DNA of 64,000 bases, from positions 1 to 64,000 of the IMG/VR virus record IMGVR_UViG_3300037104_000592; one strand, given 5' to 3'. Origin of the DNA: a virus. A program made the translations under genes and the position numbers. A model generated the notes under the pieces. The model worked only from the letters and a program-made list of their open reading frames with translations, was not told the DNA's origin and did no database searches. Shown piece after piece: positions 3,994 through 61,752 of this stretch; the stretch's first letter is position 1; each line of letters begins with the position of its first letter.

Positions 3994-4929
3994 GTGAATG
4001 ATTATGACAAACTTTTAGAATATTTAGATTCAGTAAATCAAAATAATACTTTAGAGACAGATATTAAAATAAAACAAAAAAAAGAAATTGAAGTTGCAAA
4101 AGCAAAAGAAGAATCTGTTTCTAAGGATATAGACAAACTAATAGAGGCGTCTCAAATAACTGATATATTTGAGACGCCTCAAGTTTTACAATCGGTAAGA
4201 GGTTTTGACATCACACGGTTTGAAAATTTAATGCGGTCAAAACTTATAGAAGAATATAAGAAAATTCAATCATATGAAAGACCTTATATATCTGTAACAG
4301 AATTATTTTCTTGTATGAGAAGTAATTATTATAATAGGGTGAAATATCAAGTTGATGTTAAAGATTTATTTAAATTTGCACCATTAAAATTAATTCAAGA
4401 TGTAGCAAATACAATTCATTCAGTTGTTCAATCTGTTTATGATTTTTCTGAGACAGAGAAAACAATAATTAGTGAAAAATATAAAGTTAAAGGAAGAATG
4501 GATGCAAACAAAGAGAACTTTTTATATGAAATAAAAACATTAGATGAAGCAAAGTTTTCTGGTAAATATAATATTGATCATTATAATCAAGGTAATATTT
4601 ATGCTTATATTCTTAACAAAGAATATAATTATAATATAGATACAGTTGTTTTATTATATTTTTTTAGAGATAATTTAAAAAAAAGACCAAGTGTATTTGA
4701 AATAAAAGTTGATGAAAAACAAGCAGAATTTTATGTTTTAAAAGCAAATATATTGTTATCATATATTCAAAGAAAAGAAGTTCCTGATATTATAGGAGCA
4801 ACTGAGGAGCAATGTAAGTATTGTTTATATAAAAAATTCTGTGAAAAAGATGATTCTAAAACAATTAAACCATATTTGAAAAAATCAGAAGAGAAGTTAG
4901 AAAAACCAAAAACAGTTTTTCTTATTTAA
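3994..4929 (+). CDS. Cas4-like / PD-(D/E)xK exonuclease with Fe-S cysteines
   Basis: SVTELFSC, GRMD...YEIKT, QGNIY, C-terminal CKYCLYKKFC. Confidence 0.8.
   Translation: MNDYDKLLEYLDSVNQNNTLETDIKIKQKKEIEVAKAKEESVSKDIDKLIEASQITDIFETPQVLQSVRGFDITRFENLMRSKLIEEYKKIQSYERPYISVTELFSCMRSNYYNRVKYQVDVKDLFKFAPLKLIQDVANTIHSVVQSVYDFSETEKTIISEKYKVKGRMDANKENFLYEIKTLDEAKFSGKYNIDHYNQGNIYAYILNKEYNYNIDTVVLLYFFRDNLKKRPSVFEIKVDEKQAEFYVLKANILLSYIQRKEVPDIIGATEEQCKYCLYKKFCEKDDSKTIKPYLKKSEEKLEKPKTVFLI
4144..4180. repeat. Perfect 15-bp inverted repeat inside the Cas4-like gene
   Basis: GAGGCGTCTCAAATA-N7-TATTTGAGACGCCTC. Confidence 0.85.
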
Positions 4930-12613: not shown

Positions 12614-13375
12614 ATGTTGTGTCATTATGGGTGTGGGAATGAAGCATCTTATAAGTTTAAAAATGGTATAATGTGTTGTTGTAAAAGTCAGAACTCATGC
12701 CCAGAAATGAGAAAGAAAAATATAGGATGCTTAGGTAGAAAATTTACATGGTCTAGAGAACATATAGAAAAAATAAGAATAAAAAATAAAGGAAAGATTA
12801 GAACACCCGAACAAATAAGAGTAAACTCAGAATCACATATTGGAAAACACCATGATGAAAAAACCAAAAAAAAGATAAGCGAAAAACTAAAAGGTAAAAA
12901 CAATGGAATGTTTGGAAAAAAACATACAGAAGAATGGTTAGAAAATCATAAAAAAAGAATGATAAATGGTCAAGCAATTCACATGAATAAATGTAAACCA
13001 ATAGAAGAAAGAGAAAGATCAAGACAACGAATGTTAAATGGAGAAGCAGCGAGAATTCAAAAATTTATAAAAAACCCATCTAATGAAGAAGTTTTATTAA
13101 GAAATATAGTTAAAAAATTATATCCAGATTGTGAATTTCAACATCAAGTTTTTAATTATTCTTTAGATGTTGCTCTATTAGAATTTAAAATTGCTATTGA
13201 ATATGATGGTCATTATCATTTTCATACAGAAGAAGCAAGAAAATACTTTAAAAATAGACAAACTAGAATTGAAAATGAAGGATGGAAATTTATTAGATAT
13301 ACAATATTTGATAAATTTCCATCCAAAGAACAAGTTGAATATGATATTAAAAAAATAATTGAAGGTATAAACTAA
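12614..13375 (+). CDS. Free-standing endonuclease: CxYGCG Zn module, NUMOD3 repeats and Vsr/DUF559-like domain
   Basis: MLCHYGCG..KNG..CCC; NGMFGKKHTEE; LDVA...IAIEYDGHYH...GWKFIRY. Confidence 0.8.
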   Translation: MLCHYGCGNEASYKFKNGIMCCCKSQNSCPEMRKKNIGCLGRKFTWSREHIEKIRIKNKGKIRTPEQIRVNSESHIGKHHDEKTKKKISEKLKGKNNGMFGKKHTEEWLENHKKRMINGQAIHMNKCKPIEERERSRQRMLNGEAARIQKFIKNPSNEEVLLRNIVKKLYPDCEFQHQVFNYSLDVALLEFKIAIEYDGHYHFHTEEARKYFKNRQTRIENEGWKFIRYTIFDKFPSKEQVEYDIKKIIEGIN

Positions 13376-22649: not shown

Positions 22650-22700
22650 TGAGCATCTATGAATCTTTAAAGTGGCTTCATAGATGCTCACTTATTTTTA
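22650..22700 (+). terminator. 14-bp hairpin followed by a T-tract (terminator, attenuator or sRNA end)
   Basis: TGAGCATCTATGAA-N13-TTCATAGATGCTCA, then CTTATTTTT. Confidence 0.6.
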
Positions 22701-22997: not shown

Positions 22998-23090
22998 CAG
23001 CAACCTGTTTACTATTAGGTGCATTGATCGGATATATTCGATTAATTCGCTTAATAGTAAACAGGTTGCTGATTAATTATTTTTTGGTTT
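22998..23090 (+). terminator. Very long RNA hairpin (~34 bp with G-U pairs) followed by T-tracts
   Basis: CAGCAACCTGTTTACTATTA (22998-23017) is perfectly complementary to 23052-23071; the stem continues inward through G-U pairs to a TATA loop. Confidence 0.7.
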
Positions 23091-53204: not shown

Positions 53205-53249
53205 TTTGTATTATTAAAAATATTATATTATAAAGAATCGGAGTTACTT

Positions 53250-53768
53250 ATGAAAGAAACACTAGATAAGCTTACAGATGAAGGTGTAAAGCAACTAAAA
53301 TATTATTATAAGAAAACAAGGCTCTTTGGAAATATTTGCACTGTTTGTTTACTTATTGGAGAAAATAATGAACTTATTTCAAGAGGAGTTTCTATTTGTT
53401 CATTATTAGATTCTCATAAAAAATCAACAGGAAAAAATATTGCTTTAGGAAGAGCAATAAAAGCTCTAAAAAATAAGAAAACAACAGATGAAATAAATCC
53501 AAATAGAGATTCTTTAACACATTGGATGTATACTAAAAATATAAATAAAAAAGATCCTTATTTTAGCGATATGTTTGAAGAAATTAAATATAATTGCTTT
53601 TCTACAAAACCTTTAAAAATTAATAAAGAAGAAGTTTTAAAAGTTGAAATACCAATGGATTTTCCATTGTATGCAACTGTATCATTATTTACACATAAAT
53701 CTTCATTTAAACCAACTCCTACGGATGAAGAAGTTAAAATAATTGAAAAAAGAAAAAAGTTAGATTAA
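53250..53768 (+). CDS. Conserved phage hypothetical protein
   Basis: SRGVSICS..D...K.TGKNIALGRA motif. Confidence 0.6.
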   Translation: MKETLDKLTDEGVKQLKYYYKKTRLFGNICTVCLLIGENNELISRGVSICSLLDSHKKSTGKNIALGRAIKALKNKKTTDEINPNRDSLTHWMYTKNINKKDPYFSDMFEEIKYNCFSTKPLKINKEEVLKVEIPMDFPLYATVSLFTHKSSFKPTPTDEEVKIIEKRKKLD

Positions 53769-53777
53769 ATTTTTAGA

Positions 53778-53945
53778 AAAATTGGGGTGGATAATCATAC
53801 TGAATAAGTGGTTTTGAAACCTGGTACTAAGAAAGAGTGCGAACTCTGGGGCAGGAACCCAGATAGAAGCTTTAGATGGCTCGATAGCTGACTGATAGAT
53901 ATTGCACCCAAAGTGCCTTATCCAGTATTATTCCACCCCAATTTT
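53778..53945 (+). ncRNA. Putative structured non-coding RNA (~170 nt, multibranched)
   Basis: GC-enriched intergenic island. Long closing stem (AAAATTGGGGTGGA..ATACTG.ATAAG with CTTAT.CAGTAT..TCCACCCCAATTTT) and internal hairpins including GAGT-GCGA-ACTC. Confidence 0.65.
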
Positions 53946-53957
53946 AGGAGATTAAAA

Positions 53958-54200
53958 ATGGGTAGTTATAATCAAGATAAAGATGTTTTAATAAAAATGT
54001 TTGAAATGATTACAGATGAAAAGGGTTCTTCTCTAATGTTGTCTATTTTTTCATACGACAATGGACCGAAAAAATTAGCAATGACAAGATCATATAATAA
54101 AAAAGATGGATCTGTTGGATATTCTTCAGCAGGTAGATTAAGTCTTATGGAAGTTAATTTTCTAAAAGATAAATTAGATGAAATAATTAAAGAGATGTAA
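53958..54200 (+). CDS. PC4/YdbC-like ssDNA-binding protein
   Basis: LSIFSYDNGPKKL..TR..KKDG...GRLSLMEV; AGGAG RBS before ATG 53958. Confidence 0.6.
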   Translation: MGSYNQDKDVLIKMFEMITDEKGSSLMLSIFSYDNGPKKLAMTRSYNKKDGSVGYSSAGRLSLMEVNFLKDKLDEIIKEM

Positions 54201-55926: not shown

Positions 55927-58623
55927 ATGCCAAATATATTAAACATAGATAAGTTTTGTGAAAACTTAAAAGGAATTTCTTCTTTAAAAGCTATTGATAA
56001 AAGAAAATTCCATCCAAATGGATTATTCTCAGAGCAGATATTTGGTCCTTTAAAAAATTATACATGTCAATGTGGAATATATCATGGAGTATCCAATGCA
56101 GGTGGAACTTGCGAAATATGTGGAGTTGATATTGTTCATAGTATTGAGAGAAGAAGAAGATTTGGAAAAATTGTTCTACCTTTGAAAGTTGTTAATCCAA
56201 TTTTTTATGATTTGGTTATAAAATTGGGTGGAAATATATTAAAAAAGAATATAGATGAGTTAATGAAAAATGAAAAAAGTTATTTATATAAAGATGAAAA
56301 TGATTATATTGTAGAAACTAAGTTACCCCATCCTACTAATACTCAAATATGGGATAGATCTGAAGCAATTTTTGAATTAGTAAATGGACTTGCTACAGAG
56401 TTGGGAAATAATGAAAGTGGAATGGGAATTAAAGAATGGGAATTAATAAAAAATAATATTGATTGTTTATTTATTAAAAATGTTATAGTGTTACCACCTG
56501 ATTTAAGACCTGCTGCAAAAGGAATGGATAAGAACGATCAACGAATGGATAAGATAAATAGATTTTATGTTCAAATTCTTACAAAAAAAGAAAGTATGAG
56601 AAATACTCCTATAAATATAGAAACTGATAAAAGCGTATATTACAATTTTTTCAAGCAATTACAGAGAGATGTTAATGAATTATATGAACATATTATTTCA
56701 AAAATATCCAAGAAAGAAGGTTTAATAAGAGGAAATATTTTAGGGAAGAGAATAGATTTCTCAGGTAGAGCTGTTATTGTTCCAGAACCTTCTTTGAAAT
56801 TAGATGAATGTAGTCTTCCATATTTAATGGTTTTAGAATTATTTAAAATTCAATTATCTAAAAAACTTATAGATTTAAAACAGTTTAAATTATTAAATGA
56901 AGCAATTGATTTTGTTGATAGGTGTATAGAATTATCAGATCCTATTTTATTTAATATTTGTCAAGACATAGTTAAAAATGAAGTTTGTTTACTTAATAGA
57001 CAACCAACTTTACATAGATTAGGAATGATTGGATTTAAGATAAAAACTTCTTTAGATAAAGTTATAAAGATACACCCCCTAGTTTGTCCAGGATTTAATT
57101 CGGATTTTGATGGAGATCAAATGGCAGTATATATTCCGATTTCTGATAGGACAAAAGCAGAAGTTAGAGAAAAATTTATGTCAACTAAAAATTTATCTAA
57201 TCCTTCAAATGGAAGTTTAATTACTATTCCAAGTCAGGATATGGTTTTAGGAATTTATATGTTGACTACATCATCATTTGGAGAAGTTGAATATAAAGGT
57301 GAAAAAATAACAATTGGATCCAAAATATTCAATGAATGTTTACCAAGTGATTATCCATTAATAAATGGTTCAATAAATAATAAGATCTTAAAAGAAACAT
57401 TAAATGATATTAAAAATAAATATCCAGATGAAATAGTAACTGAAGTATTAGATAAAATAAAAGAAGTTGGTTTTAGATTTTCAACAATATATGGAACCTC
57501 AATGTCTTTGAAGCATATTTCAATTGATGGAATTGATAAAATTAAAAATGATATTTATTCATTGGATAATATTCAAGATCAATTATCTGCAATCTCTAGT
57601 AAAAAAACTGAAGATATAATGAGGAAAAACTTTAAATATTCTTATCTTATAGATTCAGGTGCAAGAGGAAAATGGGATCAGGTAAGACAAATAATTTTAA
57701 CAAGAGGATATATTTCTAATTTTCAAGGAGATATTCTCCCAACCCCAATAAAGCATAATTTAATAGAAGGTTTAGATCAACAAGAGTTTTTTAATTCAAC
57801 ATACGGTTGTAGAAAAGGATTATTAGATGTTGCATTAAATACAGGTGATTCTGGATATTTATCTAGAAAATTAATTTTCACTTGTGTTAACTTAATAATT
57901 GGGGAAGAAGATGATTGTGGAACAACAGATTATCTTGATATATTAGTTACTAGTGAAAAGAAAGCAAAAATGTTAATTGGAAGATATTATTTAAATGATG
58001 GAAATTTATCTGAAATAACAGTTGAAAATCATAAAGGATTTGTTGGAAAATTAATTCAACTTAGAAGTCCTATTTTCTGTAAAAATGAAGAACTATGTCA
58101 TAAATGTTATGGAAACTTATATAAAAATTTACATAGTAAGTTTGTAGGAATTATAGCTGCTCAAGCATGTGGAGAAGCTGGAGTTCAGCTAATTTTGAGA
58201 ACATTCCATACAAGTGGTGTAGCAAAGATTTCGGAAGATCAAACAGATATGAGACAGTCAGATATCGTAAGTGATTTATCTTCTGTATCAAAAGTTCTTC
58301 ATAATAAAGATAAAAAGGAATATAAAGAATTAGTTTCTAATTTATTTGACTTATATATTATAAATAGAGATATTCACCATATTCATTTTGAATGTATAAT
58401 TTCTCAAATGATGTGGAAAGGTTTTAGAAAATGGAGACTTCTACCAAATAGAGATAAAATTTCTTCAGACTATTATTCAATTCAAACAGTTCCTGAAAAA
58501 GAAAGTTGGATTGTAGGATTAGCTTTCTCAAATCCAAAAAACCATATTTTAAAAGGAATTGTTCAAGATGGAAATTATAAAGGAATTTTTGATAAAATAA
58601 TGCTAGGAGAAATACCTAGATAA
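55927..58623 (+). CDS. Phage multi-subunit RNA polymerase beta'-like subunit (set 2)
   Basis: GLFSEQIFGP, Zn finger CQC..CEIC, VLPPDLRP, GKRIDFSGRAVI, NRQPTLH, FNSDFDGDQMA, RKGLLD, LRTFH. Confidence 0.95.
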   Translation: MPNILNIDKFCENLKGISSLKAIDKRKFHPNGLFSEQIFGPLKNYTCQCGIYHGVSNAGGTCEICGVDIVHSIERRRRFGKIVLPLKVVNPIFYDLVIKLGGNILKKNIDELMKNEKSYLYKDENDYIVETKLPHPTNTQIWDRSEAIFELVNGLATELGNNESGMGIKEWELIKNNIDCLFIKNVIVLPPDLRPAAKGMDKNDQRMDKINRFYVQILTKKESMRNTPINIETDKSVYYNFFKQLQRDVNELYEHIISKISKKEGLIRGNILGKRIDFSGRAVIVPEPSLKLDECSLPYLMVLELFKIQLSKKLIDLKQFKLLNEAIDFVDRCIELSDPILFNICQDIVKNEVCLLNRQPTLHRLGMIGFKIKTSLDKVIKIHPLVCPGFNSDFDGDQMAVYIPISDRTKAEVREKFMSTKNLSNPSNGSLITIPSQDMVLGIYMLTTSSFGEVEYKGEKITIGSKIFNECLPSDYPLINGSINNKILKETLNDIKNKYPDEIVTEVLDKIKEVGFRFSTIYGTSMSLKHISIDGIDKIKNDIYSLDNIQDQLSAISSKKTEDIMRKNFKYSYLIDSGARGKWDQVRQIILTRGYISNFQGDILPTPIKHNLIEGLDQQEFFNSTYGCRKGLLDVALNTGDSGYLSRKLIFTCVNLIIGEEDDCGTTDYLDILVTSEKKAKMLIGRYYLNDGNLSEITVENHKGFVGKLIQLRSPIFCKNEELCHKCYGNLYKNLHSKFVGIIAAQACGEAGVQLILRTFHTSGVAKISEDQTDMRQSDIVSDLSSVSKVLHNKDKKEYKELVSNLFDLYIINRDIHHIHFECIISQMMWKGFRKWRLLPNRDKISSDYYSIQTVPEKESWIVGLAFSNPKNHILKGIVQDGNYKGIFDKIMLGEIPR

Positions 58624-61715: not shown

Positions 61716-61752
61716 TGGGAGATTAATTGTGAAATTAATCTCCCACATTTTA
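61716..61752 (+). terminator. Intrinsic terminator after RNAP set 2
   Basis: TGGGAGATTAATT-GTGA-AATTAATCTCCCA (13 bp, GNRA loop), then CATTTT. Confidence 0.75.

Follow-up and report, generated by a model that had tools for sequence, protein, structure and literature searches.

A large stem-closed intercistronic hairpin with a replaceable interior in an uncultured AT-rich jumbo phage, and its possible release as a small RNA

The element described here lies between two genes of an uncultured phage represented by an IMG/VR record of 82,376 bases (IMGVR_UViG_3300037104_000592), of which the first 64 kb (64,000 nucleotides) constitute the window, i.e., the whole stretch of DNA that was analysed. 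The completeness of the record is 26% by CheckV, which would put the full genome at about 315 kb, the GC content of the genome is about 26%, and nearly all genes of the window are carried by the plus strand. The element and both flanking ORFs sit within a gene island composed of JAB, ThiF, Rho_N-Ubl and ThiF genes, and a phage-encoded, bacterial-type RNA polymerase beta' subunit is located at 55927–58623 (27–30% identity to bacterial and jumbo-phage beta'). The upstream ORF in the program-made list encodes 172 aa (53250–53768, plus strand; stop codon TAA at 53766–53768). Pfam and PHROGs searches with this ORF were both empty, and an IMG/VR search with its protein returned no relatives; homologs with the C-terminal pattern ...YKSEF.P.PT.EE..MFKL sit ahead of the hairpin slot described below in most of the related phages. 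The downstream gene encodes 80 aa (53958–54200, plus strand; ATG at 53958), and its family was used to define the orthologous slots. This gene had been called PC4-like, which is appropriate at the level of the fold only: its AF2 model (pLDDT 91) has a predicted four-strand-plus-helix PUR/PC4-type fold, and PUR-alpha repeats rank first among solved structures (Z 6.6, rmsd 2.2, 65 aligned), with the bacterial PC4-like proteins SP_0782 and YdbC ranking below them. A Pfam search with the 80-aa protein, however, gave no match.

The gap between the two genes is occupied by a long inverted repeat with a GC-enriched interior. The outer closing stem pairs a 5' arm, AAAATTGGGGTGGA (53778–53791, plus strand), with a 3' arm, TCCACCCCAATTTT (53932–53945, plus strand), and the inverted-repeat search found these 14 nt to be 100% complementary. 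An inner tier pairs 53793–53808 with 53917–53932 in the same search (both on the plus strand; 16 nt, 88% complementary), of which the MFE structure uses six pairs. The terminal inverted repeats are nested, and the sequences flanking the arms (TAGA and AGGA) show no target-site duplication. In the MFE structure, the 14-bp stem is flanked by a helix on its inner side and a weak one of 7 bp on its outer side, giving about 20 bp or more of coaxial double-stranded RNA, as in the RNase III hairpins of the T7 type. The Shine-Dalgarno (SD) sequence AGGAG of the 80-aa gene (53946–53950, plus strand) directly follows the stem. These features agree with the sequence-only reading, which had described an interrupted closing stem of ~27 bp, a GC-enriched gap (GC of 0.43 in 53800–53949 against 0.20–0.29 in the flanks) and an end of the stem immediately before the ribosome-binding site.

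The folding signal of the element comes from its closing stem. The 181-nt stretch has an MFE of −58.1 kcal/mol compared to −39.5 ± 3.9 kcal/mol for dinucleotide shuffles (n = 200; z −4.75, 0/200 as good), and its minus strand is slightly more stable (−59.8 kcal/mol, z −6.4). Four small inner hairpins (53810–53821, 53835–53846, 53845–53863 and 53904–53916) had also been proposed. All four are present as described within the 108-nt interior (53809–53916, plus strand), but the stability of this interior alone is at the level of its shuffles (−24.3 versus −23.1 ± 3.4 kcal/mol; z −0.35; 74/200 as good; minus strand, z −1.78). The statistical signal is that of the closing stem and not of the inner hairpins. 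A terminator consensus scan did not call the element, whose stem encloses 140 nt and not a loop of ~3–8 nt. The four T at 53942–53945 pair with AAAA at 53778–53781 inside the stem, and neither an attached promoter nor a clear U-tract terminator was found at the element.

The element has no counterpart among catalogued RNA families. Rfam 15 gave no match at the gathering score across the 64-kb window and no match at E ≤ 10 in 53600–54100, ribozyme families included; nothing relevant was found in the rest of the record, the group I intron family RF00028 had no match anywhere in the window, and ARAGORN detected no tRNA or tmRNA. The earlier statement that the element could not be assigned to a known RNA is borne out by these searches. 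Rfam was also applied to the loci of eleven relatives and found nothing in their slots, the lone match being a sub-threshold S15 leader in L032 (60–135), outside the slot. Searches for copies and sources of the sequence were equally empty: blastn with the element against INPHARED phages gave no homolog, blastn-short and nhmmer against all fetched loci gave chance words of 10–13 nt only, an exact 23-mer of the interior gave no match in IMG/VR, and no second copy occurs in the 82-kb record, i.e., in 26% of the genome. No source of the interior 20-mers was found among the 185,579 species genomes of GTDB, where the sole match, 22 nt common to two orthologous Eubacterium genes, is read as chance. 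Five loose matches to the arms occur in the genome, where 1.5 are expected, and no two of them form a pair; other hairpins of the genome are unrelated in sequence, and no target or partner of the interior was found.

A strong hairpin at this position is a general feature of related phages. An earlier metagenome scan with two sequences only had given no relatives. The family of the 80-aa protein has 23 members, and the 23-sequence alignment was used to find loci L005–L042; in total, 38 loci were fetched from IMG/VR and JGI metagenomes, and 24 non-redundant slots were compared, the comparison being made without the closest relatives P0003–P0005 (76–81% identity) and the 201-kb contig of P0001. 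The slot, bounded by the stop codon of the upstream 172-aa homolog and the SD that serves the 80-aa gene, contains a strong hairpin in all 24 non-redundant loci, with stabilities of −11.5 to −58 kcal/mol and stems of 11–24 pairs. The hairpins range in size from ~35 to 170 nt, and sequence, loop and size are all unconserved. Plain stem-loops with 4–9 nt in the loop make up about half of the relatives' hairpins. The range extends from plain stems of 13–20 bp with such loops (L004, L006, L012, L015, L017, L020, L022 and L030) to stem-closed interiors of 60–135 nt (L009, L024, L025, L028, L031, L032, L033, L035 and L040). L004, which is nearest to the phage studied here (81% protein identity), has a gap of 58 nt that holds a stem of 17 bp and a loop of 5–7 nt. 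The large versions are all GC-rich (0.42–0.57, compared to about 0.26 for the genome). Eleven interiors shared no motif beyond that of shuffles, and the interiors of L025 and L028 were not more stable than shuffles. The stem is followed by a T-run in about half of the relatives and by A-runs in the other half, and the gap between the hairpin and the SD is 0–12 nt, into which no promoter fits. Over the slots, the stem pairs comprise 373 Watson-Crick and 30 G-U pairs, and the plus-strand fold is the more stable one in 17 of the 24. The homologs thus show an interior that is unconserved in all 24 slots, with unrelated sequences and sizes, contrary to what a conserved structured RNA would lead one to expect. 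A strand-specific G-first bias of the stems (24/24) was dropped, as an inverted repeat reads identically on both strands, and the idea that the stem in the window shares its origin with the plain L004 and L020 hairpins was dropped because the local alignments were at noise level.

The hairpins are exchanged wholesale among close relatives. Around the slot, L024, L025 and L028 are close to one another (L028 is shorter, and its unaligned ends dilute its alignments), and L025 and L024 are 85% identical over 5 kb, yet their slot hairpins are unrelated. Among these three loci, the slot is the sole sustained internal stretch below 60% identity; the comparison of L025 with L024 adds isolated windows of 0.53 and 0.58. 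L025 and L028 have a common closing stem (ATGGCCGTG and CCACGGCT) around unrelated interiors, and the hairpin of L024 is entirely different. The element of L025 is also found in L023 and L026 behind another upstream gene, with homology beginning at the first base of the stem. L016 is without the 172-aa gene and has one hairpin, and many relatives have a second ("sister") hairpin upstream of the 172-aa gene. The sister hairpins of L024, L025 and L015 differ at six positions, each of which is compensated on the opposite arm, and of the three G-U pairs in the inner hairpin of L025, two are Watson-Crick pairs in L007. Pairing at a fixed place is kept and the content is replaced, and the hairpin marks a cassette border. 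The slot has the arrangement that characterizes promoter-early stem-loop (PeSL) elements, i.e., a stop-to-start stem-loop at a cassette border with breakpoints at the motif. The unrelated hairpins of close relatives and the lack of conservation in the interior also leave a conserved riboswitch or ribozyme unsupported.

The element is represented in environmental RNA. Public runs holding the stretch are mostly peat metagenomes, with small shares in six metatranscriptomes, and contigs were placed on the stretch from the RNA runs X15, X16 and X19, which belong to three studies, and from one DNA run. Parts left uncovered in X15, X16, X19 and X9 should not be read as absent. A contig of X15 (53677–53890) extends from the upstream ORF into the element, and a 157-nt contig of X19, a bioreactor run, covers the element only (53794–53938). 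The 213-nt contig of X16, a peat run, also covers the element only (depth 13.6; flanking genes uncovered), and it reads 53912–53950 and then 53768–53941, a back-jump of 183. As 213 = 183 + 30, the contig fits a closed cycle of 183 k-mers if the assembly k was 31, which is an assumed value. The proposal of a discrete transcript therefore gains from RNA contigs in three studies, element-only in two of them, but such contigs show neither strand, RNA ends nor levels. The X16 joint (53950 to 53768) implies a 183-nt circular or multimeric head-to-tail RNA on the basis of one contig from one run. At a mean depth of only ~14, a rare library artefact would not be expected to yield junction k-mers, and we therefore read the joint as real head-to-tail RNA; alternatively, it could reflect a strain with a tandem duplication or a jump of reverse transcriptase between the stem-held ends. 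A length of 183 = 3 × 61 would suit an endless ORF around the circle, but each of the six frames contains 1–8 stops, which rules out a concatemer-coding template RNA.

The ends of the 183-nt unit fall in the sequences just outside the stem. The unit (53768–53950, or possibly 53769–53951 owing to a 1-nt ambiguity; assigned to neither strand) consists of the whole hairpin with 10 leading and 5 trailing nt, the SD included. Its first position is the final base of the stop codon or the base next to it, and it ends right after AGGAG. Relative to the predicted outer helix (53768–53774 with 53947–53953), the ends would have a 3-nt 5' overhang, a geometry derived from a weak predicted helix and one contig. 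Cutting by RNase III as in T7 does not fit these ends, which under this pairing have no 2-nt 3' overhang in the stem and which fall outside the 14-bp stem; the RNase III Pfam model had no match in four phage records. Archaeal bulge-helix-bulge splicing was rejected, given that no such site is present and the beta' subunit is of the bacterial type. For a permuted group I intron, the unit does end in G (53950), but the preceding base is A (53767) and RF00028 is absent, and this candidate was also discarded. If the joint is shifted to the right by one base, U occupies the +2 position at each of the two cuts, within an AU-rich single strand, a resemblance that carries little weight in AU-rich DNA. 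U at +2 in an AU-rich single strand is the signature of RNase E sites (PMC5222698).

The phage probably encodes an RNA ligase. A 383-aa ORF at genome positions 65331–66482 (L045:1331–2482) contains the motifs KLDGTN, FELFG, EGMV and KCK and is a probable Rnl1-like RNA ligase, as judged from the sub-threshold PF09414 match of a 56%-identical ortholog and from ESM Atlas features (0.98 to clusters of RNA_lig_T4_1, the T4-Rnl1 type). Pfam, PHROGs and PDB sequence searches with the 383-aa ORF itself were empty, and its AF2 model (pLDDT 43) was too poor for a structure search. The T4-Rnl1 Pfam model was silent in the four phage records and equally silent in control genomes, so that its silence in the phages carries no information. 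The relative G001 encodes both RtcB and a PF09414 ligase. T4 Rnl1 seals breaks in a loop that is closed by a stem. In archaea, an ATP-dependent Rnl circularises stem-closed C/D box sRNAs (PMC9014305).

We consider the element to be a hairpin cassette at a module boundary that acts in mRNA processing, is expanded in this phage and gives an excised piece that is stable and ligatable, and we assign this reading a probability of about one half. The element would be an unusually large local version of an intercistronic hairpin module in a clade of uncultured AT-rich jumbo phages, with a position fixed after the stop codon of the 172-aa gene and ahead of the ribosome-binding site that serves the 80-aa PUR/PC4-like gene. 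The long near-perfect stem alone is retained in this module, and sequence, loop and size are swapped wholesale, with homology breaking at the stem. In the phage studied here, the 14 + 16-bp stem wraps ~108 nt of GC-richer filling that has no conserved or above-chance fold. The module may be co-transcribed with the upstream gene, presumably from the plus strand, and the stem would then turn it into a nuclease-resistant piece. A nuclease would cut in the AU-rich single strands outside the stem, at the stop codon and just past the SD, and the excised piece may outlive the flanking mRNA. As the stem keeps the 5' and 3' ends adjacent, the ends could be joined to form a circle of 183 nt. An RNA ligase would be the most plausible agent, for which the phage has the probable Rnl1-like candidate. 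The likely role is the separation of two cistrons through mRNA processing, mRNA stability or control of the downstream SD, rather than ligand sensing.

Several observations do not sit easily with a processing cassette. A cut after the SD would strip the downstream gene of its ribosome-binding site, which is odd for a simple insulator, and a "neutral filling" leaves the GC-richness of all the large versions unexplained. The joint comes from one contig of one run, the minus strand folds slightly better, there is neither a promoter nor a clear U-tract terminator, and the end geometry fits neither RNase III nor bulge-helix-bulge cleavage.

The same data allow other explanations, among which a functional discrete ncRNA of a new kind, linear or circular, is possible though doubtful. 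Its interior would be a payload (decoy, sponge or anti-defence) that is swapped in an arms race, and the stem would be the handle for processing or circularisation. Stable RNAs are usually GC-rich, and so are all the large versions in an AT-rich genome. Element-only RNA contigs in two studies and the one circular joint are consistent with a payload RNA, as are the retention of the stem with exchange of the interior in L025 and L028, the G-U pairs of L025 of which two turn into Watson-Crick pairs in L007 (strand-specific RNA pairs), the more stable plus-strand folds in 17/24 slots and a second large stem-closed element in the same genome (67197–67405). However, about half of the relatives carry a plain 4–9-nt loop in place of a payload, the interiors are unrelated, motif-free and fold at the level of shuffles, and a target, a partner or a second copy was not found. 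We think it unlikely that the element is a feature of the DNA alone, i.e., a palindromic, MITE-like or recombination hotspot in the form of a fragile palindrome with filler or of a small mobile inverted repeat, with RNA arising as incidental read-through that survives as a double strand. This would account for stems that are almost all Watson-Crick (373 versus 30 G-U), for wholesale replacement in near-identical phages with breakpoints at the stem, for the nested terminal inverted repeats and for an interior whose GC content looks foreign. A mobile or repeated DNA agrees poorly with a single copy in the 82-kb record, with the lack of an IMG/VR 23-mer match, of a repeated arm family and of a target-site duplication, and with 185,579 species genomes that provide no source of the interior (22-nt chance match only). 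Moreover, the occupation of the slot in 24/24 relatives at a fixed distance from stop codon and SD argues for selection at the transcript level, and the head-to-tail RNA joint would be left unexplained.

An ordinary intrinsic (rho-independent) terminator of the upstream transcription unit is improbable. The GC-rich stem is followed by TTTT, a T-run is found past the stem in about half of the relatives, and other hairpins of the window are accompanied by T-runs as well (22650–22690 and 22998–23071). But a branched loop of 140 nt is far from the form of a terminator and was not called by the scan, the four U are paired with AAAA in the stem, and A-runs take the place of the T-run in the remaining half of the relatives; with 0–12 nt before the next SD, there is no room for a promoter, and the downstream genes need read-through. 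The sequence-only reading had proposed a new ncRNA or cis-switch, and its two halves fare differently. A new ncRNA agrees with the absence of a catalogued family and with RNA in three studies, whereas a riboswitch-like cis-switch of a new class, or a self-cleaving ribozyme, is very improbable. The place directly before the ribosome-binding site, the GNRA-capped hairpin and the two defined ends implied by the joint would suit a switch or ribozyme. Against these stand the lack of an Rfam match at E ≤ 10 and an interior that is unconserved in every orthologous slot and not above chance in stability, and a single ribozyme cannot explain two cuts at unlike sequences.

Among known systems, the element comes closest to PeSL cassettes, which are found in T4-type phages (Arbiol et al. 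2010, PMC2839356; Comeau et al. 2014, PMC4122927), and to the Correia repeat-enclosed elements of Neisseria, which are co-transcribed inverted repeats cut by RNase III (PMC2649163). Like the PeSL elements, the slot hairpin is a stem-loop that fills a stop-to-start gap and borders dispensable cassettes in large phages, and differences between close relatives map to the motif, with exchange and deletion at the hairpin. The PeSL elements, however, are a repeated, conserved family with a sigma-70-like promoter, whereas the element has no promoter, no repeated consensus and an interior of up to 140 nt. The circular by-products reported for PeSL are DNA carrying ORFs, in contrast to a 183-nt joint without an ORF in an RNA library. 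Correia elements resemble it in their size (~100–150 nt), intergenic location and inverted repeats of ~26 nt. Co-transcription, processing of a long RNA hairpin and altered expression of adjacent genes would be common to both, with processing of the element being our inference. Correia elements are multi-copy, conserved in sequence and inserted at TA with duplication, unlike the single-copy element with its lack of duplication, and their processing by RNase III differs from the ends deduced here, which have no 2-nt 3' overhang under the predicted pairing. The element is a member of neither the PeSL nor the Correia class, having no promoter, no repeated consensus and a single copy.

The head-to-tail joint invites comparison with small circular RNAs. 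As in the archaeal C/D box sRNA circles (PMC9014305) and the substrates of T4 Rnl1, a terminal stem holds the ends together for closure by a ligase, which is a candidate in this phage. In contrast to the archaeal circles, the element has no C/D boxes, the beta' subunit of the phage is bacterial-like, and circularity is represented by one contig. Retrozymes and viroid-like RNAs are DNA-encoded small circRNAs with self-cleaving ribozymes (PMC7761336), and they are similar to the 183-nt RNA in being <200 nt and highly self-paired, with a head-to-tail joint in a transcriptome (in the single run X16) and a DNA template. Unlike these RNAs, the element has no hammerhead, twister, hairpin or HDV-like motif and occupies a single-copy, gene-flanked locus without tandem or LTR arrangement, and no sign of replication of the 183-nt RNA was found.

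The conservative part of our interpretation would by itself extend hairpins as recombination borders of gene cassettes to a jumbo phage outside the T4 group. It also cautions against assuming that any GC-rich gap with a good fold in an AT-rich phage is a conserved RNA. More tentatively, the phages of this clade may excise the hairpin cassette from polycistronic mRNA and ligate it to a circRNA (183 nt, SD-bearing, with no intron or ribozyme) whose swappable interior is a payload, representing a new DNA-encoded class made by a nuclease and an Rnl1- or RtcB-type ligase. Should the joint be real and general, ordinary intergenic hairpins would be a source of small circular RNAs in bacteriophages, with neither introns nor ribozymes involved, for which no description was found in the literature searched. 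Phage RNA ligases would then gain a role beyond tRNA repair, and the stem would serve as a naturally occurring "stem handle" by which arbitrary inserts could be circularised.

The second large stem-closed element of this genome, at 67197–67405, has no similarity to the slot element (score of 15 compared to a shuffle mean of 17), and its slot showed no synteny in the relative G002. Long hairpins followed by T-runs are also present within the window at 22650–22690 and 22998–23071.

The slot hairpins share a strong G-first bias. All 24 non-redundant slots, comprising those of the relatives (L004–L040, from IMG/VR and JGI metagenomes) and that of the window (53769–53957), carry a hairpin of this type, and their 5′ arms contain 146 G against 14 C. 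The bias gives no strand, because an inverted repeat reads alike on either strand. The more stable fold lies on the plus strand in 17 of the 24 slots (Wilcoxon p 0.03). The window's element is represented in a bioreactor metatranscriptome (run X19) by a contig that matches window 53794–53938 with zero differences and leaves six unaligned bases at either end. These ends may be left over from an adaptor, reflect strain variation or belong to a different context.

The region upstream of the slot is hyperplastic, and the gene preceding the hairpin varies among relatives. The hairpin follows the ubiquitin-like (Ubl) gene directly in L016, and in L023 and L026 the 172-aa gene is replaced by short, unrelated ORFs of 77 and 85 aa together with a GC-rich terminator-like hairpin. 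In relatives, the gap that separates the Ubl gene from the 172-aa gene is also a conserved hairpin slot, the second of its kind, with the sequence AAATTGGTGGGTGAAT and variants (L024:1838–1880, L025:1791–1829, L028:1268–1306 and L015:1862–1899), in which six substitutions are compensated on both sides of the stem. The corresponding 45-nt gap of the window (53205–53249) contains no hairpin (fold −1.4 kcal/mol).

Immediately 3′ of the purine-rich hairpin arm lies the gene for the 80-aa protein (window 53958–54200), which is modelled with high confidence (pLDDT 91) as four strands and a C-terminal helix. The model represents a single-strand nucleic-acid-binding fold, because its top solved-structure matches are PUR-alpha repeats (Z 6.6), followed at lower rank by SP_0782 and YdbC, which are bacterial PC4-like ssDNA binders. 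Autoregulation by this putative nucleic-acid-binding protein is conceivable.

The same phage carries a second large stem-closed intergenic element beyond the window (L045:3197–3405, genome 67197–67405). Its outer stem of 12–13 bp (arms AATGTAAGCGAC and GTCGCTTACATT) and an inner stem of 10 bp enclose ~185 nt, the element includes a GC-rich hairpin with a GAAA cap, and the folding energy of the whole is −61.7 kcal/mol (z −5.6). Rfam gives no match to it, and its sequence shows no similarity to the 53769–53957 element. Within the window, further long, perfect intergenic hairpins of 13–24 bp occur at 22998–23071, 22650–22690, 61716–61745, 4144–4180 and 13280–13324, and these five have unrelated sequences. 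In the first, a stem of 24 bp is combined with a hairpin inside it, and the fold reaches −52 to −60 kcal/mol at 26% GC. T-runs follow several of the five.

A 383-aa ORF of the same phage (L045:1331–2482, genome 65331–66482) probably encodes an Rnl1-like RNA ligase and carries the motifs EKLDGTN, FELFG, EGMV and FKCKPEE. A Pfam search of the ORF returned no match; its ortholog in the related phage record G002 (56% identical) has a sub-threshold match to PF09414 (RNA_ligase), and the ESM Atlas feature score to RNA_lig_T4_1 clusters is 0.98. The AF2 model (pLDDT 43) is too low in confidence for checking the assignment. The related 269-kb phage record G001, from which L008 derives, contains genes for a complete RtcB (414-aa frame, E 1.5e-46; G001:C1:77539–78660) and a PF09414 RNA ligase (G001:C1:93242–93730); RNA end-joining enzymes are therefore present in this clade.
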